Shown here: in pieces, positions 34,529 to 64,000 of the stretch | Layout: each line of letters starts with the position of its first letter | How positions within the stretch are numbered: the stretch's first letter is position 1 | From: Dehalococcoidia bacterium | Lineage (GTDB): Bacteria > Chloroflexota > Dehalococcoidia > Lucifugimonadales > UBA3495 | Direction of reading: 5' to 3' | DNA: 64,000 nt | Assembly (NCBI GenBank): GCA_965220265.1 | Contig: CBDCPM010000001.1 | Coordinates: forward strand, 30,803-94,802 | Notes under the pieces: model-generated | Told to the model about the DNA's origin: nothing | The model's database searches: none | Seen by the model: the letters and a program-made list of their open reading frames with translations, nothing else | Position numbers and translations under genes: made by a program

Positions 34529-34530
34529 GT

Positions 34531-35664
34531 ATGACGTCGCTCGATGGCATACTCGCCGGCGAGGAGCTCGGTGCCACCGGGCAGGACCACCTGTCCGAAC
34601 TTAGGGCGTGGCTCAGAGCCAACCCCGAGGATCAACTGGTTCGCGATGAGCTGCGTCGGTTGGCCAGCGAGCTGGATACCATCGGCGAGATCGCCAACCA
34701 GCGCGAGGTACGGGCGATCACCGATATCACCGGCAACTTACCCCGTTCCCTGCTCTCGGTCGCGGGCGGCAATGGGGCCATCTTGACCGAAGGCAGCGTG
34801 GCGCTGTTGGCCGGTGCCGGAGGTGTCGGCAAGTCGGCCCTGATGGTCTCCTTGGCCCTGGGCGTCGCCCGGCTGGGCGACGGCGTCCGCGGTGCGGTGG
34901 TCGAGGGAATATTCGACGGTGTCGGCGGTCCGGTGATACTGGTCACCTACGAGGACGTTCCCGAGGTGACCGCCTGGCGAATGCGTAATCTGGTGGCCGA
35001 GGTGATGGGGCGGGAGACCGAGGAAGCGCGCCAGGAGGTCTTTGGTCGAATCTACGTGATCGATCTGTTGGGCCGCCCGCTGTTCGGCCCTATGTCCACC
35101 CCCGGCCGTTCGGCGTCTTACAATGCTCCCCCCGGTCCGCTTACTGGTTGGTCCGATCTGTGGTTGGCGGCCGCCAGGATAAGGCCGGGTCTCATCATCG
35201 TTGACCCGGCACTGTCCGCTTTCTCGGGGGAGAGCAACGCGGCGGCGCCCGTTCGGGAGTTTCTGGGGGCGCTATCCCTCCGGGCCAAGACCCTTGGTAC
35301 CGGCGTTCTCCTCACCGCTCACTCCAACAAGGCAGCCCGTGGTGGCATGCAGGACCCCTATGACCCCGGCCAGGTGGGTGGCAGCGCGGCCTGGGTGGAC
35401 GGCGCCAGGGGCGTTCTGGCCATGACCCGCCCTCAGACGGAGGATGACGATGAGAACGCCGGAGGCAGCGAGTTGCAACTAGCGGTTGCCAAGAGCAACT
35501 ACGGCCCCTCCCTGGTCACCGTGGGCCTGAATTCAATACGTGCCGCCGGGGGCGCCATCGTCGGCTTCAGGGCCGAAGGCACTTGGACCGGGCCGGGTCT
35601 GAATTATGCTCAGCAGCAATCCGCTCAAGGGTCGAGCAAGAAATATGCTTCCATCGCGGATTGA
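34531..35664 (+). CDS. RepA-like RecA-fold ATPase (AAA_25 type)
   Basis: Walker A is LLAGAGGVGKSALMVSLALG and Walker B is GLIIVDPALSAF. The LLTAHSNKAAR motif is also present. The ATG at 34531 lies 2 nt after the primase stop. Confidence 0.8.
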   Translation: MTSLDGILAGEELGATGQDHLSELRAWLRANPEDQLVRDELRRLASELDTIGEIANQREVRAITDITGNLPRSLLSVAGGNGAILTEGSVALLAGAGGVGKSALMVSLALGVARLGDGVRGAVVEGIFDGVGGPVILVTYEDVPEVTAWRMRNLVAEVMGRETEEARQEVFGRIYVIDLLGRPLFGPMSTPGRSASYNAPPGPLTGWSDLWLAAARIRPGLIIVDPALSAFSGESNAAAPVREFLGALSLRAKTLGTGVLLTAHSNKAARGGMQDPYDPGQVGGSAAWVDGARGVLAMTRPQTEDDDENAGGSELQLAVAKSNYGPSLVTVGLNSIRAAGGAIVGFRAEGTWTGPGLNYAQQQSAQGSSKKYASIAD

Positions 35665-43481: not shown

Positions 43482-45257
43482 ATGAACCACGACACCGCGG
43501 GCGTTGGGCCCGCCATTCTTGACCGGCACCCGGGGCTGGACGAGGGCCAGCGGGAGCTCATCGGGCGCTTGGAAGGCCCGACTTTGGGCATCGCCGGTCC
43601 CGGCTCGGGCAAGACCCTGGCGGTGGCGCTCCGGGGCGCCAACATCCTGCTGCAGGGCAAGGCCAGGCCCGAGGAGCTGGTGCTGTGCACCTACTCGCGG
43701 GCTGCGGCACGGGAGCTTCGCCAGCGTTTCATCAGGCTGACCAGCGCCGCCGGCTGCACAGGAGACCTGACCAAGGTGCGCATCGGCACCATCCACGGCC
43801 TGTGTGGCCGGATCCTGCGCTCCCACGCTCACCGCGCCGGTCTCCGGTCTGACTTCAAGGTGCTCAACGAGGACGAGCAGTGGCATCTCCTGATGCAGCA
43901 CTACGACGATGTATTCGGTTCCGACCTGCACGTTCTGGAGGGGGAGGGCTGGCGCTGGAAAGAGCCGCATCTGGTGATCCGGCACGGCTGCAAATATTTC
44001 GAGCGGATCTGCGACGAGCTCATCGCCCCTGATGAACTGATCGATTCCGGCGACCCATTCCACGCCGCCCTGGGCCGGTGCTATCTCCGCTACCGGGACC
44101 TGCTCCTCGATGAGGGGCGGGCGGACTTCGATCACCTGCAGCGGTGGGCCGCGGAGCTCCTGGAGGACGACCGCATCGCGGACCCCATCGCAGACGGCAC
44201 CAGGTATCTGATCTGCGACGAGTACCAGGACACGAGCGCCGTCCAGGAGCGCCTGCTGCTGCGGCTGTCCCGCAGCCACGGCAACATCTGCGTGGTGGGG
44301 GATGACGACCAGGCAATCTACCGTTTCCGCGGCGCCAGCGTGAGGAGCCTCCTGGAGTTTCCCGACCGCTTCGCCAACTGCCACACCGTGGAGCTGGGCG
44401 TCAACTACCGCAGCCATCCGGACATCGTGCGCTTTTACGACGGGTGGATGGCCACCGCCGCCGACTGGTCCAGTCCCGATGCGGGCGGTCGGCCCTTCCG
44501 CTACCCCAAGTCCATCACGCCCCACGACACCGGCGCGCATCGGGAGTATCCGGCGGTCATAGCCGTGGAGGGCCGGAGCGCCGGGAACGAGCGGAGACAG
44601 CTGGTGGAGTTGGTGGAGTTCCTGAAGGGCCGCGGGGTCATCGCCCGGTACGACCAGGTGGCGTTGCTGCTGCACTCGGTGCAAGGAGCCTCGGCCGTCG
44701 GCTACCTGGACGCCCTGGAAGGCGCGGGGATAGCGGTGAACCGCGCGCCTTCCGGAACCGGGAGACGCCGACGCGCCGGTTCCCGCCGGGGTCTCACCGT
44801 CACCACCATCCACCAGGCCAAGGGCCGGGAATGGGACGTGGTGATCGTGGGCTCACTGAACTTCGACAACCCCGACGTGGATCCGGTGGGCCGGGAGCTC
44901 GCGCCCTACGTGCGGAGGCCCGCCTTCGAGCCGGCCGACCGCATCGCGGAGTTCGACCACGCCCGCCAGCACTACGTGGCCTTCTCCCGGCCGCGGAGTC
45001 TGCTGGTGCTGACTGCCAGCGGCCGTGTGCATCCTCGTTTTGAAGACGCCTGGGAGCGCCTGCCCCGCTGGGACCGGATGGACCGCCGGGCGCTGGCCCG
45101 CCAGCGGTTTCGGCCGCCGGAGTCATCCGTTGATGAGGAGCGTGCCCAGAGACCGGTGCGGGTCATCCCATACCTGAGGCGGCTGGATGTGTGGCTTGGA
45201 CGCGCTGCTGCTGCAACCGGTGCGATGCCGCAGAGGCGGAAAGACCGCCGCTCGTAG
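43482..45257 (+). CDS. UvrD/Rep-type SF1 helicase (short form, 591 aa)
   Basis: Motif I is IAGPGSGKTLA. It also contains ICDEYQDTS, VVGDDDQAIYRFRGA, VNYRSHPDIV and TIHQAKGREWDVVIV. The ATG follows AGGAGaacagcaac. Confidence 0.9.
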   Translation: MNHDTAGVGPAILDRHPGLDEGQRELIGRLEGPTLGIAGPGSGKTLAVALRGANILLQGKARPEELVLCTYSRAAARELRQRFIRLTSAAGCTGDLTKVRIGTIHGLCGRILRSHAHRAGLRSDFKVLNEDEQWHLLMQHYDDVFGSDLHVLEGEGWRWKEPHLVIRHGCKYFERICDELIAPDELIDSGDPFHAALGRCYLRYRDLLLDEGRADFDHLQRWAAELLEDDRIADPIADGTRYLICDEYQDTSAVQERLLLRLSRSHGNICVVGDDDQAIYRFRGASVRSLLEFPDRFANCHTVELGVNYRSHPDIVRFYDGWMATAADWSSPDAGGRPFRYPKSITPHDTGAHREYPAVIAVEGRSAGNERRQLVELVEFLKGRGVIARYDQVALLLHSVQGASAVGYLDALEGAGIAVNRAPSGTGRRRRAGSRRGLTVTTIHQAKGREWDVVIVGSLNFDNPDVDPVGRELAPYVRRPAFEPADRIAEFDHARQHYVAFSRPRSLLVLTASGRVHPRFEDAWERLPRWDRMDRRALARQRFRPPESSVDEERAQRPVRVIPYLRRLDVWLGRAAAATGAMPQRRKDRRS

Positions 45258-47504: not shown

Positions 47505-47717
47505 TTACCAAGGCCATGGCCTCATCAATCCCCATTCGGTGACTCTGCCGGCATTGTCCCGCCAGGCCGGTGTGACATAGATGCCCACCAACCACCGTTG
47601 GATTGCGTATCGGATGCGGGTGGGAGCCACGGCCAACTCTTCCGCCAACTGGGGCACCGACCGTGGGCCATGGCTCAGGCAGCGCCCGATTTGATGGCAC
47701 AGGTGGTCATACCCCAT
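47505..47717 (-). CDS. Small HTH protein coupled to the recombinase (possible excision or regulatory factor)
   Basis: 70 aa. GPRSVPQLAEELAVAPTRIRYAIQRW looks like a helix-turn-helix. Its ATG overlaps the recombinase stop (TGATG at 47715-47719). Confidence 0.4.
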   Translation of the reverse strand: MGYDHLCHQIGRCLSHGPRSVPQLAEELAVAPTRIRYAIQRWLVGIYVTPAWRDNAGRVTEWGLMRPWPW

Positions 47718-48742
47718 CAGGCCTTCTTCTTCCGCTTGCGGGAATACAACTGGGCGACGACGCTGCGGCCGGCGAACTGTGCCCCGACGTAACGGGCCAC
47801 CGTCTGGGATGACTTCCAGCGGCCCACGGCCTGGAGCTGGGGCATGGTGGCGCCGGCTTCCGCCAGGTCGACGGCCATGCCGACCCGGCAGCTGTGGCCG
47901 CTGTAGCCTTCCCCCAGACCGGCGGCCACCGCGGCGGCGGCGATGCGTTCGCTGATGGTGGCCGGCTTCAGGTCGAACACCTTCTCTTCGCCCTCGTCCT
48001 TTTCCTCCCCGGGCAGCAGCTGTTGCCTGGGTCGGATCCGGTCCACCGCCTTCATGGTGGGCGGTCCCAGGTAGAGCACCACGCCCTCGCCCTCCTGGTC
48101 GGTCTTGGACCAGGGTATGGTCAACCGGCCGGACCCGTCCGGCTCGGTGACGATGTGTTTCCAGAGGATTTCGGCGGCCTCGGAGCGGCGCAGCAGGGCG
48201 TCGCGCATCACCGAGATCAGGGCGATGTCCACCAGGCCGCGGCGTCGGGCGTTGCGGGAATGCTCCATTCCGCGCTCGGTCTTTCGTGGGTTGCGGGCGG
48301 TTTCCCGGATCTTCTCGAGGTCTTCACCGGTGAGGGGTTTGGCGCGTTTTTCGCGTTGGCCCGCTTCCTTGGCGCGGTTGACGAACCCCTTGATGACCAT
48401 GGCCACCCTATCTTTGCAGGGGCTGTCGTATTTCGCGGACCGGTGCTCGGCGGCGATGCTGGAGGCGTAGCCTCTGAGGGTGTTGGGTTTCTTGCCGACT
48501 AAACCCTGTGTGAAGATGAACACGGCCACGGTTTCCGGATCGGCCGGCAGGGATTGAAATCCCCTTGCCTGGCACCACTCTTCGAAGGTGTTCCATTGCT
48601 GGCCCTGCTGATAGCGGGTGGTTTTAGCCCGGCTTTCCTCGGCCACCTCGCTGACCAGTTTCTCCATCAGCTCCCGCACGTCCGGTAGGTTGGCGGGGGA
48701 TGGGGGAGCCTGGGGCTCTGGGGACAGTACGGGTGTGGTCAT
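47717..48742 (-). CDS. Tyrosine site-specific recombinase (Cre/phage-integrase family)
   Basis: 341 aa. It has an N-terminal SAM-like core-binding region (TTRYQQGQQWNTFEEWCQARGF), then LLRRSEAAEILWKHI, GYSGHSCRVGMAVDLAEAG (HxxR) and GRWKSSQTVARYVG (catalytic Tyr). Confidence 0.9.
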   Translation of the reverse strand: MTTPVLSPEPQAPPSPANLPDVRELMEKLVSEVAEESRAKTTRYQQGQQWNTFEEWCQARGFQSLPADPETVAVFIFTQGLVGKKPNTLRGYASSIAAEHRSAKYDSPCKDRVAMVIKGFVNRAKEAGQREKRAKPLTGEDLEKIRETARNPRKTERGMEHSRNARRRGLVDIALISVMRDALLRRSEAAEILWKHIVTEPDGSGRLTIPWSKTDQEGEGVVLYLGPPTMKAVDRIRPRQQLLPGEEKDEGEEKVFDLKPATISERIAAAAVAAGLGEGYSGHSCRVGMAVDLAEAGATMPQLQAVGRWKSSQTVARYVGAQFAGRSVVAQLYSRKRKKKA

Positions 48743-51616: not shown

Positions 51617-54256
51617 TCATACGGTGAGGTCCACCGGCGCCCACCCATCGCCGCGGTAGCGCCAGGCATGGCGTGGTCCCTGGCCGAGGATGACCACAGC
51701 CCCGCAGCCGGAGCCCAGTATCCGCTGGGCCACGTCCATGGGGAACTCGCTCACCGGCTTGACCTCCGCGTAGGCTTCGAGGTCGCTCAGCACTATCCGG
51801 AAATCGGGGATCCAGCCGCTGAACCGCGCCGGCTCGTACTCCCAGGAGATGCCCTGCCGGTCGAAGTACGCCGCCCACCGGGCCTCCAGCTGACTGCGGA
51901 AGGTGACGCCGCCGTACTCGGTGATGACGGGAGTCTGCTCGGCACCCAGGGTGTGGGGAGCTACGTCGGTGGCCCACCGGTGCAGCGCGGCGGCGGTGCC
52001 CTCCCTCAGCAATCGGTCCCTTTCAGAACGCTGTCCCGGCTGGCGGGTGATCTCGAGGAGCGCCTGGGTGTAGCGGCCTAGGTTGTCGGCCACGGCCTTT
52101 GACAGTCCCAACCCGCCGCCCACCTTGTCCCAGATGACGATGGCGCGGCGCACCTCGCTGCTGCGGCCGTCGCGCACCACCTGGACGTTCTGGTGCGTGG
52201 TGCGGACGTCGGCGGGGTGGACCGACTCCCGGCTGCACATGACGGTCCGCAGGGCTCGGGCCACGTCGCGCCTGGTGCTGGCGTCGTCGAACCAGTCCTC
52301 CCAGATGATGATCAGCGTCGCGGTGGTGCGCAGGTTGGTCACCACCTCGGGGATGCCCTCAACGTCGTAGTGAACGTCTCGCCACTCGACGTCGCCCCCC
52401 TCCCGGATGGAGCAACCGACGATCCGTTCCCAGGTCACCGCCTGGGCGTGGGTGCCGTACTCCAGGTGGCCCAGGTCTGACACCCGGGGCTCCTGCAACG
52501 TGACCGTGGCGCCGCTGCGCGTGATGGGCCTGGTCTCCCGGGGCGGAGCGTGGCGCGCCGTGATCACCGTCTCGCCGCCCGACTCCCGCCAGGCCAGGAT
52601 GGAGTAGCTCTGCTTGGCGTGGAAGTAGGTGGCCAGCGGATAGGCGTCTCGCGCCGCCTCCCGGCGGGTCACCTCGCTGGTCAATAGTTCGGTTTCGCCG
52701 CCCGGCATCAGTTGCACGATGCGCGCTCGCCCGTCGGCAGCGTCCCGGATATCGTTGCGGTGAGGTTGCTGCGGGTCCCCAGTCTGGAACTCCGGCGCGT
52801 AGTGGTCACCGCGGGCGATCTCACGCAGCGTCTGGGGCAGCTGCTCCGGCCAGGCGTCGGTGGGCGACGGGATGGCGCGCTCCATCCCGTTGAGATCGGT
52901 TTCCTTGGCCAGGCAGCGGCCGTGGGTGTTCCTGATGTTGGGATTGGACGGATACAGCCGGGCCGGCTCCACCGGCTGGCCCCAGTAGGTCTCGAGGCTG
53001 TCCTCGTGGAACTGGAAGGCGTGGCGCGGCGCCACGATGATGAACCGGCCTGGACCGGTGCGTCCCACCCGTCCGGCCCGCTGTTTCACCTGCCCCACCG
53101 AGTGGGGCAGCCCCAGGTTGAAGCCCACCTGCAGGTCGGGGATGTCCATGCCCATCTCCATGGCGCTGGTGCTGGCGATGCCGCGAATGTCGCCGATCCT
53201 GAGCGCCTCCTCGATGCGCTCCCGGCGCATCAGGCCGGAGCGGTAGGCCATGGCGTCCCGGGACTCCACGATGATGGCGTCCTCGGTGATGCTGCGGGCG
53301 GCCTCGATACCGGCGGCGGCGCGCTCCGCCAGTTGCCGGTCGTCGATGAAGGCGATGTACGACCGGTCGGGGTCCTCGCTGATCACCTCCCGCACCGCCG
53401 CCTGCAGGTCCCGCCAGCCCTCGTCGTGGGGCTCACGGCCGACGACGTGCTGCACGGTGAGCTCGGCGCGGGGGCTGCCGTCGTACCGGTCGTCCACCAC
53501 CTGGAAGGGGAGGCCCGTGAGCGTTTCGAGGTGCTGGGCCGGGTTGTGGATGGTGGCGCTGGCCGCGATGATACGCAGGGGCTCGAACTGCGCCATCAGT
53601 TCCCGGCGCTTCTGCTGCAGGCGGTGCAGCAGGTAGAGGCAGTGGGTGCCCAGCGCGCCGTCGTAGGTGTGGGCCTCGTCCAGGATGAGAAACGCCAGGT
53701 TGGAAATGAAGCGCCTGACGTTGTACTGGGTGTTCTGCACTTCTCTCAGGTCGTGGCGCAGTGGCCGTCTGCCGTAGAGGGGCTCGGAGTAGGCCATCAG
53801 CCACTGCTGGATCACGTCGGGGGTCATCAATGCCAGGCGGGTACGCTGCAGGATCTGCCGCCGCTCGGTGAGGTCGCGCACGTCGCCGTCGATGCGGTTG
53901 ATGGCGTCGGGATCCAGGCCGGCGGCCTCCGCCATGCCCTGCCAGCGAATGACCTGGTCCCGGGCCAGGGCCTTGATGGGGTAGACGGCGATGGCCGTGG
54001 CGTTGGGGTGGTTTGCAAGGTGATCCAGGGTGGGCGCCTGGAAAACCAGGGACTTGCCGCTGGCGGTGCCGGTGCTGATCACCAGGTTGTGCTCCTGGCC
54101 CACGAGCTCCAAACCCATGGCCTGGTGCAGGTACAGCTGGCCATCGCCCGTCTGGGCCTGCACCGCGGGCCAGACGGGGCTGGCGGTCAGCCAGGCAGGG
54201 GCATCGCCGTGGCGGGCCTCCTGGCCGGGGATGGTGATCTCGTCGTGAATCTCCAC
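51617..54256 (-). CDS. DEAD/DEAH-box SF2 helicase (YprA/Lhr-like core) fused to a C-terminal PD-(D/E)xK nuclease module
   Basis: 879 aa. The helicase motifs are STGTASGKSL (I), FLILDEAHTY (II), AASATI (III) and VKQRAGRVGRTG (VI). The last about 100 aa, FRSQLEARWAAYFDRQGISWEYEPARFSGWIPDFRIVLSDLEAYAEVKP, match the small F.S.lEa....l......ye......Y.PDF......EVK endonuclease fold. A GTG start lies 6 nt after the RelE stop. Confidence 0.8.
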   Translation of the reverse strand: MEIHDEITIPGQEARHGDAPAWLTASPVWPAVQAQTGDGQLYLHQAMGLELVGQEHNLVISTGTASGKSLVFQAPTLDHLANHPNATAIAVYPIKALARDQVIRWQGMAEAAGLDPDAINRIDGDVRDLTERRQILQRTRLALMTPDVIQQWLMAYSEPLYGRRPLRHDLREVQNTQYNVRRFISNLAFLILDEAHTYDGALGTHCLYLLHRLQQKRRELMAQFEPLRIIAASATIHNPAQHLETLTGLPFQVVDDRYDGSPRAELTVQHVVGREPHDEGWRDLQAAVREVISEDPDRSYIAFIDDRQLAERAAAGIEAARSITEDAIIVESRDAMAYRSGLMRRERIEEALRIGDIRGIASTSAMEMGMDIPDLQVGFNLGLPHSVGQVKQRAGRVGRTGPGRFIIVAPRHAFQFHEDSLETYWGQPVEPARLYPSNPNIRNTHGRCLAKETDLNGMERAIPSPTDAWPEQLPQTLREIARGDHYAPEFQTGDPQQPHRNDIRDAADGRARIVQLMPGGETELLTSEVTRREAARDAYPLATYFHAKQSYSILAWRESGGETVITARHAPPRETRPITRSGATVTLQEPRVSDLGHLEYGTHAQAVTWERIVGCSIREGGDVEWRDVHYDVEGIPEVVTNLRTTATLIIIWEDWFDDASTRRDVARALRTVMCSRESVHPADVRTTHQNVQVVRDGRSSEVRRAIVIWDKVGGGLGLSKAVADNLGRYTQALLEITRQPGQRSERDRLLREGTAAALHRWATDVAPHTLGAEQTPVITEYGGVTFRSQLEARWAAYFDRQGISWEYEPARFSGWIPDFRIVLSDLEAYAEVKPVSEFPMDVAQRILGSGCGAVVILGQGPRHAWRYRGDGWAPVDLTV

Positions 54257-54262
54257 GGTGTA

Positions 54263-54523
54263 CTACCTGCGACGGTACGATTCGCGTCGGTGAGCGACGC
54301 GCACCACCAGGATGATCAGCTCGTCGTCCAGCAGTTCGTACAGGATGCGGTGGTCGCCCACCCGCTGGCGGCGCAACCCCCGCAACCCGCCCTTCAGCGG
54401 GCTGCCGGCCAGCGGGTGTTCCCCCAGTGCGTCGATGGCCGCGATGACCCGCTCCCTGGCCTCTCGGGGCAGTTGCGCCAACTCCCGTTGGGCGCTGCCC
54501 CTAATCCGGATCGAGTAGCTCAC
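54263..54523 (-). CDS. RelE/ParE-family toxin
   Basis: 86 aa. LRRQRVGDHRILYELLDDELIILVVRVAHRRESY is the RelE/ParE C-terminal signature. Confidence 0.85.
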   Translation of the reverse strand: MSYSIRIRGSAQRELAQLPREARERVIAAIDALGEHPLAGSPLKGGLRGLRRQRVGDHRILYELLDDELIILVVRVAHRRESYRRR

Positions 54524-54722
54524 GCCTGACCTCGTCCCAGTCCAGGACCGGATCGGAGGGATCCCGCAGCCGCTCCAGGGCCACGGTCAGGTCGTCGAAG
54601 TCCTCCAGGTAGCTCTCCAGGGCCTGCCGGATCACCTCGGCGCGACTGCGGTTGAGAGCCGCTGCCGCCGTGTCCAAGGCCTCGGCCACTTCATCGGGCA
54701 CTCGGGCGGTGATCTGTGCCAT
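54501..54722 (-). CDS. RHH-type antitoxin
   Basis: The ATG at 54722 follows GAGG. MAQITARVPDEVAEALDTAAAALNRSRAEVIRQALESYL is a ribbon-helix-helix. It overlaps the toxin start by 23 nt. Confidence 0.8.
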   Translation of the reverse strand: MAQITARVPDEVAEALDTAAAALNRSRAEVIRQALESYLEDFDDLTVALERLRDPSDPVLDWDEVRRELLDPD

Positions 54723-54812
54723 TGCTGGAAACCTCGAGTAGGCGTGATTACCGTTGATGTCACTGACATTGTACGCAATCACGATAGCCGAAGCCACCAG
54801 GCGTCGTCAACG

Positions 54813-56260: not shown

Positions 56261-57049
56261 ATGCCAAAGTTTGAGTTTATCGGCGTGGACGGGTGTCCTT
56301 GCGGTTGGTTCAGCGTCGGGTTCAGCAGAAGTGGCAAGTACGATTTTAAAACGTTCCCCACATTTAGATGCCTTCTGGACCATTACTGCGCAGCCACTTC
56401 GATCCTGGTGGACATTCCCATCGGACTTCCAACCGGCTCCGAGGGACGGATCTGCGACAAGGAGGTTAGGAAGAAATTGGGCAAGCGCGGAAGCAGTGTT
56501 TTCCCGGCACCGACCAGGAGAACGGTAGAGCACGTTGCCCAGCATCCGGACGATTACAAGGGCGCCAAATCAGCTGCGATGGGGAGTTCCGGTAAATCCA
56601 TCAGCAAGCAGACATTTGCAATTTCGCACAAGATTGCTGACGTGGATGACGCACTGCTCAATTACGGCGGAGGGAGGGTATTCAACGTCCGGGAAATTCA
56701 TCCAGAAGTTCTCTTCTGGGCATTCAACAACAGGAATGCTATGACATTCAGGAAAAAGGAGAGAGGAGGGAAGGGGATAGACGAACGCATCCGTGTCCTT
56801 GAACAGGTAGAGCCACGAACAAGAGCGATTTACGATAAAGCATGCGCGAAGTTTTTGAGGAAGGACGTAGCGAGGGACGATATTCTCGATGCTCTTGCTG
56901 CAGCAGTAACCGCCCGAATGGGTTCGGAGCAGATCCAGAAGTTTCCGATGGGGCTTGAAGAGTCGCCGACAGATGGCAGGGAGCTGTCGATGGAGATGGT
57001 TTTCTGGATTCCCAATCGCGAAAATGCGGCGATAACAGACGATAATTGA
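56261..57049 (+). CDS. DUF429 domain protein (predicted RNase H-like nuclease)
   Basis: FIGVDGCPCGWF, RICDKEVRKKLGKRGSSVFPAP, EIHPEVLFW and DDILDALAAAVTA match the DUF429 conserved blocks. Confidence 0.75.
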   Translation: MPKFEFIGVDGCPCGWFSVGFSRSGKYDFKTFPTFRCLLDHYCAATSILVDIPIGLPTGSEGRICDKEVRKKLGKRGSSVFPAPTRRTVEHVAQHPDDYKGAKSAAMGSSGKSISKQTFAISHKIADVDDALLNYGGGRVFNVREIHPEVLFWAFNNRNAMTFRKKERGGKGIDERIRVLEQVEPRTRAIYDKACAKFLRKDVARDDILDALAAAVTARMGSEQIQKFPMGLEESPTDGRELSMEMVFWIPNRENAAITDDN

Positions 57050-57053
57050 GGCC

Positions 57054-58559
57054 TTAGGGTCGGTGTCCACGCCCGCCATGCACATTATGAATAAGGTTGG
57101 ACGCGAAGTCCTTCGTATCTCCCTTCATCACAACTCCCCGGATTGGGACTGATTTTTTGGTCGGCGCGGAAAGGTTTTCAGCGTGCACCACGCATTCGAC
57201 CATTCCCTTCACGTGGTCGTCTGTAAAGTTGACGCAGAGTTCGACATCAAAATATTCTTCCCCAGTGCCATGCCGCCACTGTTCGCATTCCAAGCTGAAT
57301 GACTTAACCGGTTCGTCCGGACGTGTGGGCTTGTAGTAAAAAGCGTTTGGGTCCCGCCTTCGGTCCTGTTCTCCCCCCAACCAATCCGGATATAACGCAG
57401 ACTCGGGTAACATGAGGCGGTCCATGAGCCCGGGAAGCGGGTTGAAAGCCGAGACCCAGCGGCCTTGGGGTGGCTCCGGAGGAAACGGAAGTTCTAAACT
57501 CGTTCCGTTTGCTATATCGAGTTTGTCATCCATCTCATGCCACGGCGGCGACACCTCGAAGTTGCCTCTTGCGACGATATCAACCAGCGTGTCTTTGCCG
57601 GGGCGCGTCCCGCGGTTCTCCACGAGAAAACGAAACGCCGGACGACCCGAACTTTGTTGCAAGGCGAGGTGCAGGTTGGACAATATGCTCTGGCACTCGT
57701 CGATCCACCTCGGGTAATCCCGGTCGCGGTATCTGGCGATCTCATCCCCTGACGCGGGGACGAACACATCCGCCGCCCTTGCCTGCATCATGATGCGTTC
57801 CAAGGGCGATACCGCAGTGGAGTTTCCCCGTGTCGTTCGTTCATTCGGACCGAAGTACTTGCTTATCGGGCATCTGGACTTCAGAGCTTGGATCAGTTCC
57901 GAGATGTCGGCCTCGGTCAGGGGCTCGAAGACCTGGCACTCGAATTCCAGCTTTTCAACCTCCTGCCCCTGGTTGGTCACGCACCGAATCAGAAAATCGG
58001 GCTCAACTTTCCTCAGACGGTTGACCTCTTCCCGTAAGCGAGCGTTTTCGCGTTCCGCTGGATTGTTCTCGGGTGGAAGGATCCAATCCTCGGGTATGGG
58101 CTCAAAGGGCAGGCCCAGGCCCCTTGCCGTCATCATGGGACCGCCGTCGTGGGTCAGAAGGCGCACGTCCGCGCCAGAATGCTCACGACTGTATTTGTGG
58201 CAGCAACCGACAATCTCATCGTCCGGCTTGCCGTAATCGAGACGGTCCTCCAGTTCTAGGCTGGGCCTGCTCAGCGCTTCCAGATGCAGTTCGACCCGTG
58301 GACCGCTTTCTCGGATCAGCTCGTGGCCGTCTTTGCCGGTGGCGATGTTCCGGAACACCTGATACGTCTTCCGGGCGCGTTGGCTCACCCGGTCGTTGCC
58401 CCGATTCTTCTGGTTATCGATCTCTCTTTGAACCGGGCGGCACACCAGCAGATGCACCTCGTCGAAGTCGTGCCATTGAGTCCAATCGATTTGCTCCAGA
58501 GGGAGACATTGAATGAACAGGTTGGTATCGGGAAAAAGATATAGAACCCTGGCCGGCAT
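57054..58559 (-). CDS. PIN-like domain protein with a large uncharacterised C-terminal region (501 aa)
   Basis: The N-terminal LYLFPDTNLFIQC...REIDNQK...DDEIVGCC...VRLLTHDGGPMMTARGLG fits a PIN-like fold (DTN, D, D). It is followed by a coiled-coil (ERENARLREEVNRLRK) and 300 aa of unknown function. GC is lower here, about 52%. Confidence 0.65.
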   Translation of the reverse strand: MPARVLYLFPDTNLFIQCLPLEQIDWTQWHDFDEVHLLVCRPVQREIDNQKNRGNDRVSQRARKTYQVFRNIATGKDGHELIRESGPRVELHLEALSRPSLELEDRLDYGKPDDEIVGCCHKYSREHSGADVRLLTHDGGPMMTARGLGLPFEPIPEDWILPPENNPAERENARLREEVNRLRKVEPDFLIRCVTNQGQEVEKLEFECQVFEPLTEADISELIQALKSRCPISKYFGPNERTTRGNSTAVSPLERIMMQARAADVFVPASGDEIARYRDRDYPRWIDECQSILSNLHLALQQSSGRPAFRFLVENRGTRPGKDTLVDIVARGNFEVSPPWHEMDDKLDIANGTSLELPFPPEPPQGRWVSAFNPLPGLMDRLMLPESALYPDWLGGEQDRRRDPNAFYYKPTRPDEPVKSFSLECEQWRHGTGEEYFDVELCVNFTDDHVKGMVECVVHAENLSAPTKKSVPIRGVVMKGDTKDFASNLIHNVHGGRGHRP

Positions 58560-58731: not shown

Positions 58732-59169
58732 TCAGCTGTAGCGCGTTTCCACGTCTAGTATGTAGGCGAACATCCAGTCCCTGGTCCACAACCGCTGGGG
58801 CACCGGCTTAGAATCGTAGGCGTCTTTTGATACCCCGATCCATAATACGGTGTCATCTTCGTACCGCTCGACCCTTGCCGTCGGTATTTCCTTTTGTATC
58901 TGATCTTGGGCTTGCCACAGGGTCTCGTAGATGGGGCGATGCAACTGTTTATCATCGAACCGCAGCCCCACCGAGTCCTGGCCATCCTCGTCCAGGACCA
59001 GCATATGAACGATGCCTTCGTATCCGGTATGGAAGGCTCGCCAGCGTCCGCTGAAACCGTGCTGCTGCGGGTTAATAGCGTCGATGCCACGGTCCCTCAG
59101 TCGCTCCGTCAGCGGGAGGTAAAACTGACTGTAGGCCTCTTGGCCGAAATCCCCAGCGGTATCCGTCAC
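58732..59169 (-). CDS. DUF4268-like protein
   Basis: 145 aa. The overall pattern (F...L...L...., W.AF, V.L.F......n..iYe.L......I..E.......W, W...L) resembles DUF4268. This is recalled from memory only. Confidence 0.4.
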   Translation of the reverse strand: MTDTAGDFGQEAYSQFYLPLTERLRDRGIDAINPQQHGFSGRWRAFHTGYEGIVHMLVLDEDGQDSVGLRFDDKQLHRPIYETLWQAQDQIQKEIPTARVERYEDDTVLWIGVSKDAYDSKPVPQRLWTRDWMFAYILDVETRYS

Positions 59170-59228
59170 ACCGTTGCCCCCGTTTGTAGATTGCCAACCG
59201 CACCAAAGCTTCGGCTGTGGTATTAGTA

Positions 59229-59266
59229 TTGTATGCTATTGAGTATAATTACTCAATAGCATACAA
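59229..59266. promoter_or_regulatory. Perfect 17-bp-arm palindrome overlapping a TATAAT box (operator/promoter)
   Basis: The arms are TTGTATGCTATTGAGTA and TACTCAATAGCATACAA, separated by the 4-nt spacer TAAT. TATAAT lies at 59244-59249, and the ATG of the ATPase gene is at 59274. Confidence 0.65.
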
Positions 59267-59273
59267 TGAGTCC

Positions 59274-60530
59274 ATGCCTGTCTTTCAACGTTCCCACGTC
59301 ACGGCCCTTTCCCATCGCTTGGAGGAGGCTCCAAGCCGGATCATTGCGGTATTCGGCCCCCGGCAGACCGGCAAGACCACCATCGTACGCCAGGCACTCG
59401 GGCAGATACCGCAGCGGAGCCTTTACTTGGCAGTGGATGAACCCGATTCTCCCGCCTTCGTCTTTGAGGCCAATCCGGTCGGCAGGAATACCATCCTGGC
59501 ACCCCAGGTGCGAAATACCGAGTGGCTGGTCCGGAACTGGGAGGTGGCCAGGTCCCAGGCGGAGCGCTCCGAGGCGGGTTTCGTGTTGGTCCTGGACGAA
59601 ATCCAGAAGGTTCCCGACTGGTCCGAAACCGTCAAGGGCCTGTGGGATGCCGACCGCGCCCGGGAATGCCCCCTTCACGTCGTCATCCTGGGGTCCGCCC
59701 CTCTGCTCCTGCAATCCGGTCTGAGCGAGAGCCTGGCCGGACGCTTCGAGTCGCTCCGGGTCGCCCACTGGTCGTTTCCGGAGATGTCCCGCGCCTTTGA
59801 TTTCACCCTGGACGAATACCTTTACTTTGGCGGATACCCGGGCGCTGCGCCGTTGGTGCGTGATCAGGACCGGTGGCGCGACTACGTGCTGCAGGGCCTG
59901 ATCCAGCCCAACATCGAGCGGGACATCCTGGCCATGACCCGGGTGGACAAGCCGGCGCTACTGAGGCGGCTGTTCGAGTTGGGGGCCGAGTATTCCGGTC
60001 AGATTCTGTCCTACAACAAGATGCTGGGCCAGCTCACGGACGCCGGCAACACCACCACCCTGGCCCGGTATCTGGACCTGCTGGCCAGCGCCGGCCTGCT
60101 CGCCGGCCTGCCCAATCATTCCAACCAGGCTCACCGCCGCCGGGGATCCAGCCCCAAGCTCAACGTCCTGAACACCGCCCTGATGACCGCCGGGTCCGGG
60201 TACTCTTTCGACGAGGCACGCGCGGATCGCACCTTCTGGGGCCGGGTGGTGGAAAGCGCGGTGGGCGCGCACCTCTATAACACAGAGGCGTCGGACATCG
60301 CCCTGGAGTACTGGCGGAAGAATCAGCACGAGGTTGACTTCGTGCTGCAACGGGGTCGCCGGGTGGTGGCCATCGAGGTCAAGAGCGGCCCGCAGCGACG
60401 GGACGCCTCCGGCATGGCGGAGTTCGACAAGCAGTTCAGCCCCGTCCGCTCCCTGGTGGTGGGAGCGGACGGAATCCCTCTCAACGAGTTCCTGAGCGAG
60501 CCCGCGGAGCATTGGTTCGAGGCAGCATGA
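59274..60530 (+). CDS. AAA_14/DUF4143-type ATPase with a PD-(D/E)xK-like C-terminus
   Basis: Walker A is IIAVFGPRQTGKTTIV and Walker B is VLVLDEIQKV. ARYLDLLASAGLL is the DUF4143 block. The C-terminal HEVDFVLQRGRRVVAIEVKSG is a D...E.K motif. Confidence 0.85.
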   Translation: MPVFQRSHVTALSHRLEEAPSRIIAVFGPRQTGKTTIVRQALGQIPQRSLYLAVDEPDSPAFVFEANPVGRNTILAPQVRNTEWLVRNWEVARSQAERSEAGFVLVLDEIQKVPDWSETVKGLWDADRARECPLHVVILGSAPLLLQSGLSESLAGRFESLRVAHWSFPEMSRAFDFTLDEYLYFGGYPGAAPLVRDQDRWRDYVLQGLIQPNIERDILAMTRVDKPALLRRLFELGAEYSGQILSYNKMLGQLTDAGNTTTLARYLDLLASAGLLAGLPNHSNQAHRRRGSSPKLNVLNTALMTAGSGYSFDEARADRTFWGRVVESAVGAHLYNTEASDIALEYWRKNQHEVDFVLQRGRRVVAIEVKSGPQRRDASGMAEFDKQFSPVRSLVVGADGIPLNEFLSEPAEHWFEAA

Positions 60531-63500
60531 GCGTCATCGTCCAGCGCACCTGCACCGAGGTTTTGTCACACACGGAAGCCCAGCGCCGCGAACCGATCAC
60601 TGGGTCGCTCGAGCTGTTCCGCTCTGCCCCGGCGTATGTCCTGCTGGGCGACCCGGGCTCGGGCAAGAGCACGACGTTCACCACCGAGGCCGACTTCCTT
60701 GGCGCCGAAGGCATCTTGAAGTCCGCCCGTGATTTTCTGGCATCTGATGTCCACTGCCACCCCGAGTGGCGGGGCAAGACCCTGTTCATCGACGCATTGG
60801 ACGAGATGCGGGTCGGTTCCGGCGACCGCCGCGAAGCCCTGGACAGCATCAGGCGTTCCCTGGACGCCCTGGGCCGACCGCCTTTTCGCATCTCATGCCG
60901 GGAGGCGGATTGGCTGGGCGACAACGACCGGGAGCGGCTGGCCATGGTGTCCCCGGACGCCAGTGTGAGGGTTCTCCGGCTCGATCCCCTCACCGACCGG
61001 GATGTCGCGCAGATCCTGGAAGCGCATCCTGACGTTGGCAGCGCTCAGGGGTTCGTGTCGGAGGCGCGGGAGCGAGGAGTTGACACCCTGCTCAGCAATC
61101 CACTGACCCTGAATATGCTGGCAGCGGCCGTCAGTGGGAACGGCATCTGGCCCCAGGGTAGGCTGGAGACCTTCGAAATGGCCTGTTTCCAGATGGCCAG
61201 GGAACGCAATCGGGAACATTCTATAAGCGATCCGCCGCCTCCTGCTGAGCGACTGCTGGACGACGCCGGTCAGCTGTGCGCCGATCAGTTGCTTTCCGGC
61301 GCTGCCGGGTGGTCGCTGGTCTACGATGACACGGATACCGACTTCATCAACGTGAGCGACCTGGAGCATTCAGAGTCCGCGGCCGCGAAGCGTGCTCTGT
61401 CCTCCAGGCTCTTCACCGGATTGGGCGCTGACGGCAGTCGCGTTGCGCCGGTGCACCGACAAATCGCCGAGTTTCTCGCCGCCCGTTATCTGGCTCATCT
61501 AATCGAAGATAGACTTCCGGCCAATCGGGTCGTTCAACTGATCGCCGCGGGAGATGGGGCGGTGGTAACGGTATTTCGGGGACTGTCGGCCTGGCTGGCG
61601 GCGCTCTGCCCGGCGGCGCGCCATGATCTGATCGGCCGCGATCCCGTGGGCGTCGGGTTGTATGGCGACCTCCACGGTTTCTCCGTGGATGACAAGCGGA
61701 CGTTGCTGGCGTCTCTGAACCGTGAAGTGGCCGACTACGGCATCAATGCCGCCGCCTTTGCGCCGCTGGCCACTCCCGACATGGAGTCCGCCATCAGAGA
61801 TCTTCTGCATGATCCACGCCGGGATCGAGATCACCAGGCGGCAACGGACCTCATTCTACGCGCCCTGCGCCCTGGCGCGCCGTTGGCCGGTCTCGCGGCC
61901 GTGTTGCTCGAGGTCATCTATGACGATACCCGGTGGCCCCGCGTGACCAAAGCAGCGCTCGATGCGTTCATCCATACCACAACGGAGAGTGATGAAGGAA
62001 CAACTCGCTTGCGGCGGATACTGCTCGATACCAGCAATGGGACGATTGGCGATCCGGATAACGAACTGCTGGCGTCCCTGCTGGCCGCCCTCTATCCTGG
62101 GGAGGTACCTCCGTCGGAGATCTGGCGATATCTCACCGCGAAGGGCAATGCGGATCTCATCGGAGCCTATTTCGTGTTCTGGGAACGCCGGCTCCTGGAG
62201 CAGTCGTCCGACCGGGATATCGCGGAGCTCCTCGATCGCCTGAACGAACTGATGCCCGATCTGCGTGCGACGTTCCGGAGGTATTACCTGGACCGTCTGC
62301 CGACCAGACTCCTGGCGAGGGCCCTGGAAAGCTTGGGCGATGAACAGGAACCAGTTCGACTCTACAATTGGCTGAGCGCCGGCACCTACCCGTTTTGGGA
62401 CCCTCCCAGGTTGCCGGATAAATCCGTCGCCCAGATACGCGGCTGGCTGGAGCAGCGGCCTGATGTCTACAAAGCTCTGTTGCTGGAGGGTCTGGACCGT
62501 TGTCCGGACGGTGGCGGGTTCGACACTCATGCCGGCGAGGTCTGGAACCTCCAGCATGGCTGCGATCCTCCAGATGACTTCGGTCTGTGGTGCCTGGAAA
62601 CCGCCGTTGCGTGGGCGGACGTTCACCGCCGCGCCGCGGATCACCTGCTTTGGTATGCCGTCCACTTCTGTGGTCAGGAAGCCGGAGGCCTGGGGCTAAC
62701 CCGGTCGATTTTATGGGAACGCACCCGTGGTCACGAGGGGCTTGAACGCCGTCTGGCGGAACTCCTGCGACCGCCGCCGGCCGCACCACCCATTCCGGAG
62801 CGCAACGTTGATACCGGCCAGGCCGATGCTGATCGTGGGCGCCGGCAGTGGGTTGGGCGCGTTCGGCCTCACGCCGATGCCCTGCGCGAAAACAGAGCCA
62901 ATCCGAAGCTGCTGTTCGACTTGGCCATGGTTCATTTCGGCGGCTTCCCGCCGCCCGTGGTTGGTGTGGGTCCAGAACAGGGCCTCGCGGGAGTTCTGAG
63001 AGATGACGAACTCGTGGAGGCTACGATGGCTGGGCTCCGAGGGACGGTCAGTCGAAGCGATGTCCCCGGGGTTGCGGAGATCGTTCGGCTGTTTACCGAG
63101 TCCCAAGTGCACCCGTTGAGCCTGCCGTTTCTGGCTGGAATGGACGAAATGGGCCGGGACGATCCCGAAGGAGTGGAACGATTGGGCCCACTCCAGATGC
63201 GCCAGGCCCTGGCCTTCAACTACTGTACTCCTAATGGCCCCGACGGCGACCCGCCGTGGTATCTGAGATGGCTGGACTCGCGTCCTGAACTCGTGGCGGA
63301 TGTGCTGGTGCAGTGCGCGGTCCCAGCCATTCGCGGTGGCAAAGAGCATGTTCCCGAGCTGTATCAACTCGTCCACCATGGGAGCTACGCCCGGGTCGCC
63401 GCACACGCCAGCCCACGTCTCCTGGCGTCATTTCCGCTCCGCTGCAGTCTGCGCCAACTCGAGACGTTGGATGGATTGCTGTGGGCCGCCCTGCAGCACG

Positions 63501-64000
63501 CCGACCGGACGGCCCTGCAAGAGTTGATGGAAGAGAAACTTTCCCGGAAGAGCTTGAACCTGGCCCACCGAATCCGTTGGCTGGCGGTCGGCACGATCAT
63601 GGTGCCGGGGACCTATCTCGAACCCCTGGAAAGATTGGTCAGGGGCAGGGATGATCGGATCAGGAAGATGGCGGCTTTCTTCGCCCCCGACGAGAGCCTC
63701 CCTTTCCTGGTCGAGAGCCTGGACGCTCGAACCCTGCAGACCCTCATCGGTTTGATGGGCCGAACCTTCGAACCCATCGAGTCACGCGGTTGGGTCACCG
63801 CCGAGATGCGCGCCGCGGAGCAGGTCGACCGGTTGATACACCGGCTGGGGTCCCTGACCGGCGATGACGCGGCGCTGGCGTTGGACGCGCTGGTCGATGA
63901 TGAGGCGCTGTCAAAGTGGCGCGTTTTTTTGGCACGGGTCAGAGACCGGCAGCGAGTCATCCACCGGGATGCCTCATACCATCATCCGAATCTGGAGCAG
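60527..64000 (+). CDS. NACHT-type STAND NTPase with a long helical C-terminal region; partial, 3' end outside the window
   Basis: The frame is open from the ATG at 60527 to base 64000 (1158 codons). It is absent from the ORF track because no stop is reached. Walker A is YVLLGDPGSGKSTT (aa 37-50) and Walker B is TLFIDALDEM. LSNPLTLNML is a NACHT-typical motif. More than 800 aa of helical-repeat-like sequence follow. The ATG overlaps the upstream stop (ATGA at 60527-60530). Confidence 0.8.
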   Translation, partial: MSVIVQRTCTEVLSHTEAQRREPITGSLELFRSAPAYVLLGDPGSGKSTTFTTEADFLGAEGILKSARDFLASDVHCHPEWRGKTLFIDALDEMRVGSGDRREALDSIRRSLDALGRPPFRISCREADWLGDNDRERLAMVSPDASVRVLRLDPLTDRDVAQILEAHPDVGSAQGFVSEARERGVDTLLSNPLTLNMLAAAVSGNGIWPQGRLETFEMACFQMARERNREHSISDPPPPAERLLDDAGQLCADQLLSGAAGWSLVYDDTDTDFINVSDLEHSESAAAKRALSSRLFTGLGADGSRVAPVHRQIAEFLAARYLAHLIEDRLPANRVVQLIAAGDGAVVTVFRGLSAWLAALCPAARHDLIGRDPVGVGLYGDLHGFSVDDKRTLLASLNREVADYGINAAAFAPLATPDMESAIRDLLHDPRRDRDHQAATDLILRALRPGAPLAGLAAVLLEVIYDDTRWPRVTKAALDAFIHTTTESDEGTTRLRRILLDTSNGTIGDPDNELLASLLAALYPGEVPPSEIWRYLTAKGNADLIGAYFVFWERRLLEQSSDRDIAELLDRLNELMPDLRATFRRYYLDRLPTRLLARALESLGDEQEPVRLYNWLSAGTYPFWDPPRLPDKSVAQIRGWLEQRPDVYKALLLEGLDRCPDGGGFDTHAGEVWNLQHGCDPPDDFGLWCLETAVAWADVHRRAADHLLWYAVHFCGQEAGGLGLTRSILWERTRGHEGLERRLAELLRPPPAAPPIPERNVDTGQADADRGRRQWVGRVRPHADALRENRANPKLLFDLAMVHFGGFPPPVVGVGPEQGLAGVLRDDELVEATMAGLRGTVSRSDVPGVAEIVRLFTESQVHPLSLPFLAGMDEMGRDDPEGVERLGPLQMRQALAFNYCTPNGPDGDPPWYLRWLDSRPELVADVLVQCAVPAIRGGKEHVPELYQLVHHGSYARVAAHASPRLLASFPLRCSLRQLETLDGLLWAALQHADRTALQELMEEKLSRKSLNLAHRIRWLAVGTIMVPGTYLEPLERLVRGRDDRIRKMAAFFAPDESLPFLVESLDARTLQTLIGLMGRTFEPIESRGWVTAEMRAAEQVDRLIHRLGSLTGDDAALALDALVDDEALSKWRVFLARVRDRQRVIHRDASYHHPNLEQ

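Follow-up and report, generated by a model that had tools for sequence, protein, structure and literature searches.

In the canonical antiphage STAND proteins of bacteria (Avs1-5 and bNACHT), an N-terminal effector is followed by a central STAND NTPase and a C-terminal sensor (PMC12803255). Under the name Avs10, a 2026 preprint unites Erebus, Hypnos and bNACHT64 in a family whose members were tested as STAND proteins in E. coli; for the tested proteins the trigger is the phage major capsid protein, and in all Avs families tested cell death was lost upon mutation or deletion of the effector (PMC12803255). The name Erebus goes back to van den Berg et al. (2024, Cell Host Microbe, as cited in PMC12803255). 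PDC-S01, an ATPase fused to a PD-(D/E)xK domain, is described in PMC12988326 as a single-gene, unvalidated candidate that ranks fourth in frequency among the candidate defences of prokaryotes. Here we describe a locus in which these two kinds of gene are joined. It lies in a 64-kb stretch of DNA from a Dehalococcoidia bacterium (assembly GCA_965220265.1, contig CBDCPM010000001.1), hereafter the window, whose positions serve as coordinates throughout. A PDC-S01 gene (gene A, 59274-60530, plus strand), preceded by a perfect palindrome (59228-59267), is translationally coupled to a gene of the EruA/Avs10 family (gene B, 60527-64000, plus strand). The pair is probably a two-gene antiphage operon built of separable parts, in which B is a STAND protein of Erebus/Avs10 type and A is a PDC-S01 protein that regulates its own expression.

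Gene B and the Erebus/Avs10 family

The 3' end of gene B lies beyond the edge of the window at position 64000, so that the window holds codons 1-1158 of 1353 while the last 195 codons, including a nuclease-like domain, fall outside it. The full-length protein was read from P0001 (1353 residues, 100% identical, found in public assemblies), and the flanks were read from close relatives (loci L001-L004). The window part of B matches the NCBIfam model NF058535 ("NACHT domain-containing antiphage protein EruA") with E=3e-198 over model positions 5-1133 of 1318, and residues 15-1345 of P0001 are colinear with model positions 5-1318 of 1318 (912.8 bits, E=5e-274). Since this score falls under the equivalog cut-off of 1000 bits, we assign B to the Erebus/Avs10 family at the subfamily level, without equivalog certification. 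Among plasmid-borne proteins, the one from Bradyrhizobium scores 1189.6 and passes the cut-off, and those from Pantoea and Vibrio score 772 and 777. With Hypnos (HyoA, NF058534), B shares NACHT-type motifs and a C-terminal stretch of ~470 residues (878-1345 of P0001 against model positions 948-1428), but because this match is partial and reaches 155 bits against a cut-off of 1200, B is not a HyoA.

NCBIfam alone recognises gene B. No family does so in the Pfam and PADLOC model scans, the best Pfam match being NPHP3_N (E=0.014, P-loop only). PDB sequence searches with B and with its C-terminal domain returned nothing useful, and a search for an annotated E. coli EruA gave no match. The NACHT/STAND motif signature (Walker A GxxGxGK[ST], Walker B hhhhD[GA]xDE) is present and conserved in B. 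On the plus strand, the conserved Walker A motif GDPGSGKST occupies residues 41-49 (60647-60673), Walker B LFIDALDE residues 86-93 (60782-60805; L86 to E93 invariant, with the consensus LFIDGLDE of the NACHT-type DGxDE), and NPLTL residues 191-195 (61097-61111; N191, P192 and L195 invariant). A preliminary description of this stretch, made from its sequence alone, had called B a NACHT protein from these motifs. The motifs hold up, and the expected match to the Pfam NACHT family (PF05729) did not appear even at E<=10. We apply the NACHT label on the strength of the curation of NF058535 and of the DG/AxDE-type Walker B, DGxDE being taken as a NACHT mark by Koonin and Aravind (2000), as cited in PMC12803255.

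With Walker A at residues 41-49, the N terminus of B leaves no room for an effector, as the preliminary description had rightly noted. It had gone on to take the remaining 800+ residues for helical repeats and the protein for an effector-less one, whose effector would be supplied in trans by A. Full-length P0001 says otherwise. Its last 195 residues form a conserved alpha/beta domain, the sole domain of B that is neither NTPase nor helical, with an E...D...ExK motif in which E1215, D1249 and K1265 never vary among 13 homologues of 49-79% identity and E1263 is kept in at least 90% of them. The description had itself set a C-terminal effector against its proposal, and a C-terminal domain carrying E1215, D1249 and E1263-x-K1265 is what we found. 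The same residues are also invariant in unpaired relatives and in plasmid-borne EruA-family proteins, whose genes have no DUF4143 partner. Because B belongs to a known family, Erebus/Avs10, and has a domain of its own, an effector in trans is not needed.

An AlphaFold2 model covering the last 215 residues of P0001 (mean predicted local distance difference test score [pLDDT] 78.9, predicted template modelling score 0.77) has an alpha-beta-beta-beta-alpha-beta core, in which the first E is placed on helix 1, the D at the start of strand 2 and ExK on strand 3. As modelled, this is the order of the classical PD-(D/E)xK arrangement. The best neighbours found by Foldseek in the PDB are almost all PD-(D/E)xK nucleases (SfsA, Can2, McrC, PaqCI, Mus81/XPF, EndoMS and EcoRV), and those found in a viral library include ERCC4, RecU, Mrr and a PD-(D/E)XK nuclease, none of them at E<=0.001. 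As no structural or sequence match is significant, we propose a nuclease fold from the motif, the topology and these weak fold neighbours, an assignment that is well motivated if unproven. In a search of 1.84 billion representatives, 2902 proteins match this domain. In all 150 that were listed it sits at the very C-terminal end, and among these the complete proteins are ~1340-1410 residues long and the shorter ones are fragment-like. A profile-profile comparison of the domain with gene A gave no relationship, so the nuclease-like domains of B and A are not detectable duplicates of each other. We read B as a STAND protein of inverted layout, with an N-terminal NTPase, a helical sensor in the middle and a C-terminal nuclease-like domain as its putative effector.

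Compared with its closest described relatives, Erebus (EruA)/Avs10, B shows the same end-to-end colinear match to the model, an NTPase that begins at about residue 30-40, a Walker B of DGxDE type, a long helical middle, the same C-terminal E...D...ExK domain and a defence-island setting. It differs in scoring under the cut-off, in having no promoter region of its own and in being coupled to an upstream PDC-S01 ATPase-nuclease, whereas six plasmid-borne EruA-like loci have no such partner. By analogy, the window clade may share the Avs10-type trigger and the antiphage activity. With canonical Avs1-5 and bNACHT proteins, B has in common the STAND NTPase, the large helical sensor and, presumably, the logic of sensing, oligomerisation and effector action; unlike them, it has the inverted domain order, the effector-like domain being C-terminal, and an obligate upstream partner gene.

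Gene A and its coupling to gene B

Gene A encodes a 418-residue protein composed of an AAA+ ATPase (AAA_14), DUF4143 and a C-terminal PD-(D/E)xK-like core. Both Pfam families named in the preliminary description are matched above the gathering score by their hidden Markov models (AAA_14, E=1e-22; DUF4143, E=2e-28), and the PADLOC model of PDC-S01, PDLC04791, matches gene A from end to end (E=1.4e-165). Across 30 homologues, the Walker A motif GPRQTGKTT (residues 28-36, 59355-59381, plus strand) is invariant from G28 to K34, and the acidic pair of Walker B (D108 and E109, 59595-59600, plus strand) is invariant too. The AAA+ domain has a confident fold, with ORC, RFC and Vps4 as neighbours. The core (60252-60383, plus strand) reads E327 ... 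E353-V-D355 ... E368-V-K370. It corresponds to the EVDFVL...AIEVKSG motif that had been singled out earlier, which is indeed present with conserved catalytic-type residues: E327, D355, E368 and K370 are invariant or nearly so in the 30 homologues. The predicted secondary structure of this region (helix 329-337, strands 342-349, 352-360 and 363-369, helix 379-388, strand 392-396) follows the order alpha-beta-beta-beta-alpha-beta, and there are sub-threshold matches to YraN/UPF0102, NERD and RE_EcoO109I. The C terminus of A is thus predicted to carry a PD-(D/E)xK core with catalytic-type residues. A library scan of gene A for helix-turn-helix families gave no match, and no gene A relative was found in the viral contigs searched. 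A and B both retain the residues of their Walker A, Walker B and nuclease motifs.

A P-loop ATPase is also fused to a nuclease in OLD/GajA (Gabija), where DNA cleavage presumably depends on the nucleotide state of the ATPase. Gene A is alike in being an ATPase-nuclease fusion, but the folds differ, OLD/GajA combining an ABC-type ATPase with a Toprim nuclease and gene A an AAA+ ATPase with a PD-(D/E)xK core, and homology between them was not detected. Gene A resembles PDC-S01 in its full-length match to PDLC04791, the same combination of ATPase and PD-(D/E)xK domain and relatives of ~50% identity that stand alone. PDC-S01 is, however, defined as a single gene, whereas gene A is the first gene of a fixed operon found in more than 100 related loci. 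DUF4143 is listed as a PD-(D/E)XK family (PMC3424549).

The stop codon of A overlaps the start codon of B in an ATGA (60527-60530, plus strand), as previously described, and this translational coupling is widespread. When one genome per species was scanned, we obtained 80 loci with B homologues of 40-81% identity. In 76 of them a gene A homologue of 54-94% identity lies directly upstream of the EruA-like gene and ends exactly at its start. The lineages, well over ten in all, include Dehalococcoidia, Latescibacterota, several orders of Acidobacteriota, Gammaproteobacteria, Rhodothermales, Opitutales, Spirochaetia, Acidimicrobiia, Nitrospirales, Gemmatimonadota, Entotheonella and Dadabacteria. 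Sampling from the side of A, we found 29 paired loci among the 55 with enough downstream DNA, and these include every A homologue of at least 57% identity. The junction is an NTGA overlap in 98 of 110 paired loci (84 ATGA, 9 GTGA and 5 TTGA), and a Shine-Dalgarno-like GAGG precedes gene B in 41 of 79 distinct junctions. Over the same 110 loci, the identity of A to the window protein correlates with that of B (Pearson 0.92), which indicates that the two genes are inherited together. Of the two proteins, A is consistently the better conserved, which is expected if the sensor of B is under diversifying selection. In three further metagenomic loci (L001-L003) the two genes have remained adjacent and the flanking genes are all different. 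The conserved, coupled two-gene unit proposed from the window is thus borne out, and the pairing of DUF4143 and NACHT genes recurs in many lineages. It is real, old and specific to one lineage of these genes. The coupled A-B operon also appears to be new, a literature search, with the paper that defined Erebus outside its reach, having found no description of a DUF4143-NACHT pairing and a single, unrelated paper that contains both terms.

Each gene also occurs alone. B lacks A in four genome loci (L034, L044, L056 and L074), and in the six proteobacterial plasmid-borne EruA-like loci there is neither a DUF4143 neighbour nor any conserved neighbour; the plasmid-borne EruA-family genes are ~30% identical to window-type B. 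Conversely, A is found without B in 26 of the 55 loci of the A-side sample. Relatives of A with ~49-56% identity lie alone between housekeeping genes such as those for RNase PH, Usp and an aldo-keto reductase.

Several other neighbours were considered as parts of such units. In Burkholderia, an "ATP-binding protein" upstream of an EruA-like gene was rejected as a DUF4143 partner, since it is a Schlafen protein with AlbA_2 and HATPase_c_4. Small open reading frames adjoin EruA-family genes on a Bradyrhizobium plasmid (L085 4476-4910, plus strand; 144 residues, ending 16 nt upstream) and in Ralstonia (L170 7056-7364, plus strand; 102 residues, overlapping the 3' end), and such reading frames beside the plasmid EruA-family genes are not shared between the loci examined. 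In the Dehalococcoidia loci closest to the window, and in these only, a convergent reading frame of 61-65 residues (MPxCVAC...YVKSLYRIxGQDYCRHHIIRAAV) lies ~50 nt 3' of gene B (L001 12111-12308, L002 9364-9561 and L003 12114-12299, all minus strand; also L004, L005 in three copies, L006 and L089); the matching position of the window lies outside it. It was rejected as a third core gene because of this limited range and its repetition in L005, and may be a small repeated gene or element.

The palindrome and the promoter of gene A

An inverted-repeat search resolved the palindrome at 59228-59267 into two arms of 18 nt (59228-59245 and 59250-59267) that are 100% complementary and separated by the spacer TAAT. 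Its half-sites are ATTGAGTA and TACTCAAT on the inner side and ATTGTATGC and GCATACAAT on the outer side, and the ATG of gene A follows at 59274, six bases past the palindrome end. The preliminary description had seen a perfect palindrome overlapping a TATAAT box. The repeat is indeed perfect, with arms of 18+18 rather than 17+17 nt, and the TATAAT (59244-59249, plus strand) stands 24 nt before the ATG. The core ATTGAGTA-N4-TACTCAAT occurs once in 64 kb, against 0.02 occurrences expected from shuffles.

This operator-like element is conserved in sequence and in position. Across most loci it has the consensus aATTACgctATTGAGTAattTTACTCAaTAGcGTAATtt, and in nearly all paired loci it is centred 26-27 nt upstream of the ATG. 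At least 58 of 80 loci have half-sites at positions -35 and -24 relative to the ATG. When 69 distinct 40-mers were aligned without gaps, symmetric positions were complementary in 77.6% of cases. Sliding the partner by 1-3 columns lowers this to 35-43%, and none of 500 shuffles, a control that ignores sequence relatedness, reaches the observed value. Changes are two-sided, columns 8/33 being GC in 20 sequences and TA in 19, and columns 3/38 TA in 18 and AT in 16. The 80 nt preceding A hold half-sites at a density of 21-36 per kb, an enrichment of ~50-fold over the 0.3-0.8 per kb seen within the genes, downstream of them and farther upstream. That the palindrome represents the terminal inverted repeats of a mobile element was rejected, the half-sites being enriched only upstream of A and not downstream. 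An intrinsic terminator was likewise rejected, since the element has no T-run and none is predicted at the site.

Stand-alone relatives of gene A carry the same half-sites, often in arrays of four laid out as TTTACTCAA, 3-4 nt, TTGAGTAAA, 2-3 nt, TTACTCAA, 4 nt, TTGAGTAAA. The element therefore travels with gene A and not with gene B. The operator control suggested earlier stands insofar as the palindrome is a conserved control element, which belongs, however, to the subfamily of A rather than to the pair. In the 80 nt upstream of these solo genes (L115-L168), up to four half-sites, alternately TTACTCAA and TTGAGTAA, are spaced ~11-12 nt apart, and the dyad is centred anywhere from 11 to 49 nt before the ATG, unlike in the paired clade.

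A promoter scan found TTGAGT, 17 nt and TACAAT; in the overall geometry of the element, 6-7 nt separate the -10-like hexamer from the ATG. In the window, the -35-like TTGAGT (59239-59244, plus strand) lies within the left inner arm, at -35 to -30 from the A of the ATG, and the -10-like TACAAT (59262-59267, plus strand) is the right outer arm, at -12 to -7. Over 84 non-identical upstream regions, the most conserved columns are asymmetric (TTG at -35 to -33, and T-12, A-11 and T-7), and in the alignment of 40-mers T35, A36 and T40 are nearly invariant. The -35 hexamer is TTGAGT in 34 and TTGACT in 6 of the 84 regions. The central TATAAT is A/T-rich and is not kept as a -10 hexamer in the homologues, which have TAGTTT, TATTTT, AATTTT and similar hexamers at this place. 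Since they conserve TAnnnT at -12 to -7 instead, the central hexamer is probably not the -10 element used.

A Shine-Dalgarno-like motif is found upstream of A in 9 of the 84 regions only, and the first start-codon column holds 1.9 of 2 bits, so that ATG strongly predominates. Because canonical sigma-70 spacing puts the start of transcription at the ATG, without a Shine-Dalgarno sequence, the mRNA would be leaderless, starting at or beside the ATG. The dyad-symmetric sites overlap the promoter and accompany gene A with or without B, and in the window the operator-like element would cover the promoter fully. Both the conserved operator and the probable leaderless promoter appear to be new for this PDC-S01 subfamily, and the palindromic promoter-operator is absent from the description of PDC-S01 in the available portion of PMC12988326. 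By its symmetry, the palindrome also presents a promoter-like site on the minus strand in the promoter scan. A 145-residue reading frame (58732-59169, minus strand), with a weak, below-threshold match to DUF4268 (E=0.004), diverges from it in the window and is not kept at other loci.

Genomic setting and proposed workings of the operon

The A-B operon looks to be situated within an integrated island of mobile and defence genes. The window encodes an AAA_25 ATPase (34420-35664), a UvrD-type helicase (43482-45257) and a tyrosine integrase (47717-48742), followed by a stretch (51617-54797, minus strand) with a gene for an 879-residue DEAD/Helicase_C protein that has PADLOC matches to SngC, BrxHI and DruE. 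Beside this helicase are two small genes (54263-54523 and 54501-54797) whose counterparts in L001 match ParE_toxin and RHH_1, respectively. In L001, a like trio (an 885-residue DEAD helicase, ParE_toxin and RHH_1) flanks the A-B pair on its other side. The modules of the defence island are changing places around an A-B unit that stays constant. A DUF429 protein (56261-57049, plus strand) and a 501-residue PIN_4 protein (57054-58559, minus strand) are encoded closer to the palindrome, and these families likewise adjoin the pair in L002, where DUF429 is a gene fragment; they could be another defence or toxin module. Further away (21230-27151, minus strand) lies a gene for a 1973-residue protein with seven fibronectin type III domains and leucine-rich repeats. 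Eukaryote-like repeat proteins of this kind are typical of sponge symbionts, and many of the related loci come from metagenome-assembled genomes named for sponge symbionts (Poriferisocius, Porisulfidus, Entotheonella and Latescibacterota). The repeat protein and these names suggest that the source of the window is a sponge-associated member of the Dehalococcoidia/Chloroflexota.

How might the two genes work together? In the antiphage operon that we consider probable, A would bring its own regulatory DNA, the palindromic TTGAGTAA/TTACTCAA half-sites over its promoter, and in one lineage an EruA-like gene would have been captured directly behind A, with the ATGA overlap. Because the module moves between phyla together with the operator, the binder is most economically encoded by the module itself, and because solo relatives of A keep the operator, the product of gene A is the obvious candidate. 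The role of A is, on these sequence patterns, most likely autoregulation: the protein would bind its own operator through the DUF4143 region, repress the leaderless promoter and so gate expression of a toxic sensor. Since B sits behind A with an ATGA overlap, it would be produced only together with A and in matching amounts, and so would stay scarce, at a constant ratio to A and subject to its control. The helical sensor of B would then bind a conserved phage protein, by analogy with Avs10 the major capsid protein, upon which the NTPase would drive oligomerisation and the C-terminal nuclease-like domain would act as a killing or DNA-degrading effector, the outcome being abortive infection or DNA degradation. 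A may also supply a second, ATP-dependent nuclease activity or associate physically with B.

A number of points weigh against this proposal. B scores under the cut-off of NF058535, has no PF05729 match and, in a PDB profile search with its NTPase, retrieved no NLR among the matches. Its C-terminal domain has no Pfam or PDB sequence match and no Foldseek match of significance. Both the binding of the operator by A and the interaction between A and B are things that we infer. Because the DUF4143 middle region of A (three helices at 227-272) is modelled at a pLDDT of ~30 from an alignment that is too shallow, a winged-helix DNA-binding domain in A is assumed. That each gene exists alone elsewhere is compatible with no functional dependence as well. 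Many of the loci stem from metagenomes that are related and, it appears, for the most part sponge-associated, and there are duplicates among them, so the pairing counts overstate the number of independent events, and the shuffle control of the dyad test takes no account of sequence relatedness.

The alternatives differ in what they make of A. The preliminary proposal, in which B is a NACHT protein without an effector of its own and A is a trans effector recruited by the activated STAND sensor, draws on the P-loop of B from residue 41, and hence the lack of an N-terminal effector, on the conserved PD-(D/E)xK core of A, on the strict conservation of the coupling and on the co-divergence of the genes. 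It appears highly improbable, since full-length B ends in a conserved E...D...ExK domain that is also found in EruA-family proteins without gene A, Avs10-family STAND proteins lose cell death when their effector is mutated or deleted (PMC12803255), and A occurs solo among housekeeping genes. At the other extreme, A and B might be two independent defence genes that share a promoter, a stable product of shuffling within the defence island, with no regulatory or physical interplay beyond co-transcription. That A is alone in 26 of 55 loci, and B alone in L034, L044, L056 and L074 and on plasmids, would fit, as would the complete NTPase and nuclease motifs kept by both genes and a neighbourhood of shuffled defence and mobile elements. 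We nevertheless regard this as unlikely, because the same 4-nt overlap and gene order hold over A identities of 95% to ~55% and across many phyla, with a co-divergence of r=0.92, while the flanks differ at every locus examined, and chance neighbours in islands normally reshuffle far faster.

A more elaborate possibility, to which we also give a low probability, makes A a self-regulating gatekeeper and partner in one: it would hold the operon almost silent, release the operator on infection, for example on a change of nucleotide state or on binding of foreign DNA, and form a two-nuclease complex with B. A last alternative concerns the palindrome, which might act as a nucleic-acid structure (a DNA cruciform or hairpin, or an RNA hairpin within a longer transcript), possibly as a substrate or self-marker for the nuclease of A. 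In favour of a structure, the two 18-nt arms match perfectly in the window, and the variable positions change on both arms together (columns 8/33 and 3/38). Its most conserved columns are asymmetric, though, and fall on the -35 TTG and the -10 TA...T at canonical distances from the ATG; the arrays of up to four alternating half-sites in solo relatives, ~11-12 nt apart, are typical of proteins that bind cooperatively and not of a single hairpin; the element lacks a T-run, and no terminator is predicted; and a leaderless mRNA made from this promoter would not include the element. A structural role is therefore quite improbable, and an operator for an autoregulating A is the reading of the palindrome that we retain.

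A further STAND defence gene is no surprise to the specialist, and this one comes with a caution: NLR-like proteins with a short N terminus may hold their effector at the C terminus, and a truncated window can mimic an "effector-less" protein. Erebus/Avs10 is a recently characterised, capsid-sensing family of NLR-like proteins, and PDC-S01 is common and yet unvalidated. The A-B operon, found over many phyla, provides a natural genetic handle on the function of DUF4143 ATPases, and the locus supplies a defined 40-bp operator and a probable leaderless promoter. If the gatekeeper possibility were true, a bacterial NLR would be licensed in both expression and activity by a second, DNA-sensing ATPase, which would be the first mechanism for the very common, uncharacterised PDC-S01/DUF4143 family. 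The locus is a concrete entry point to the function of a candidate defence family that ranks among the commonest still uncharacterised.

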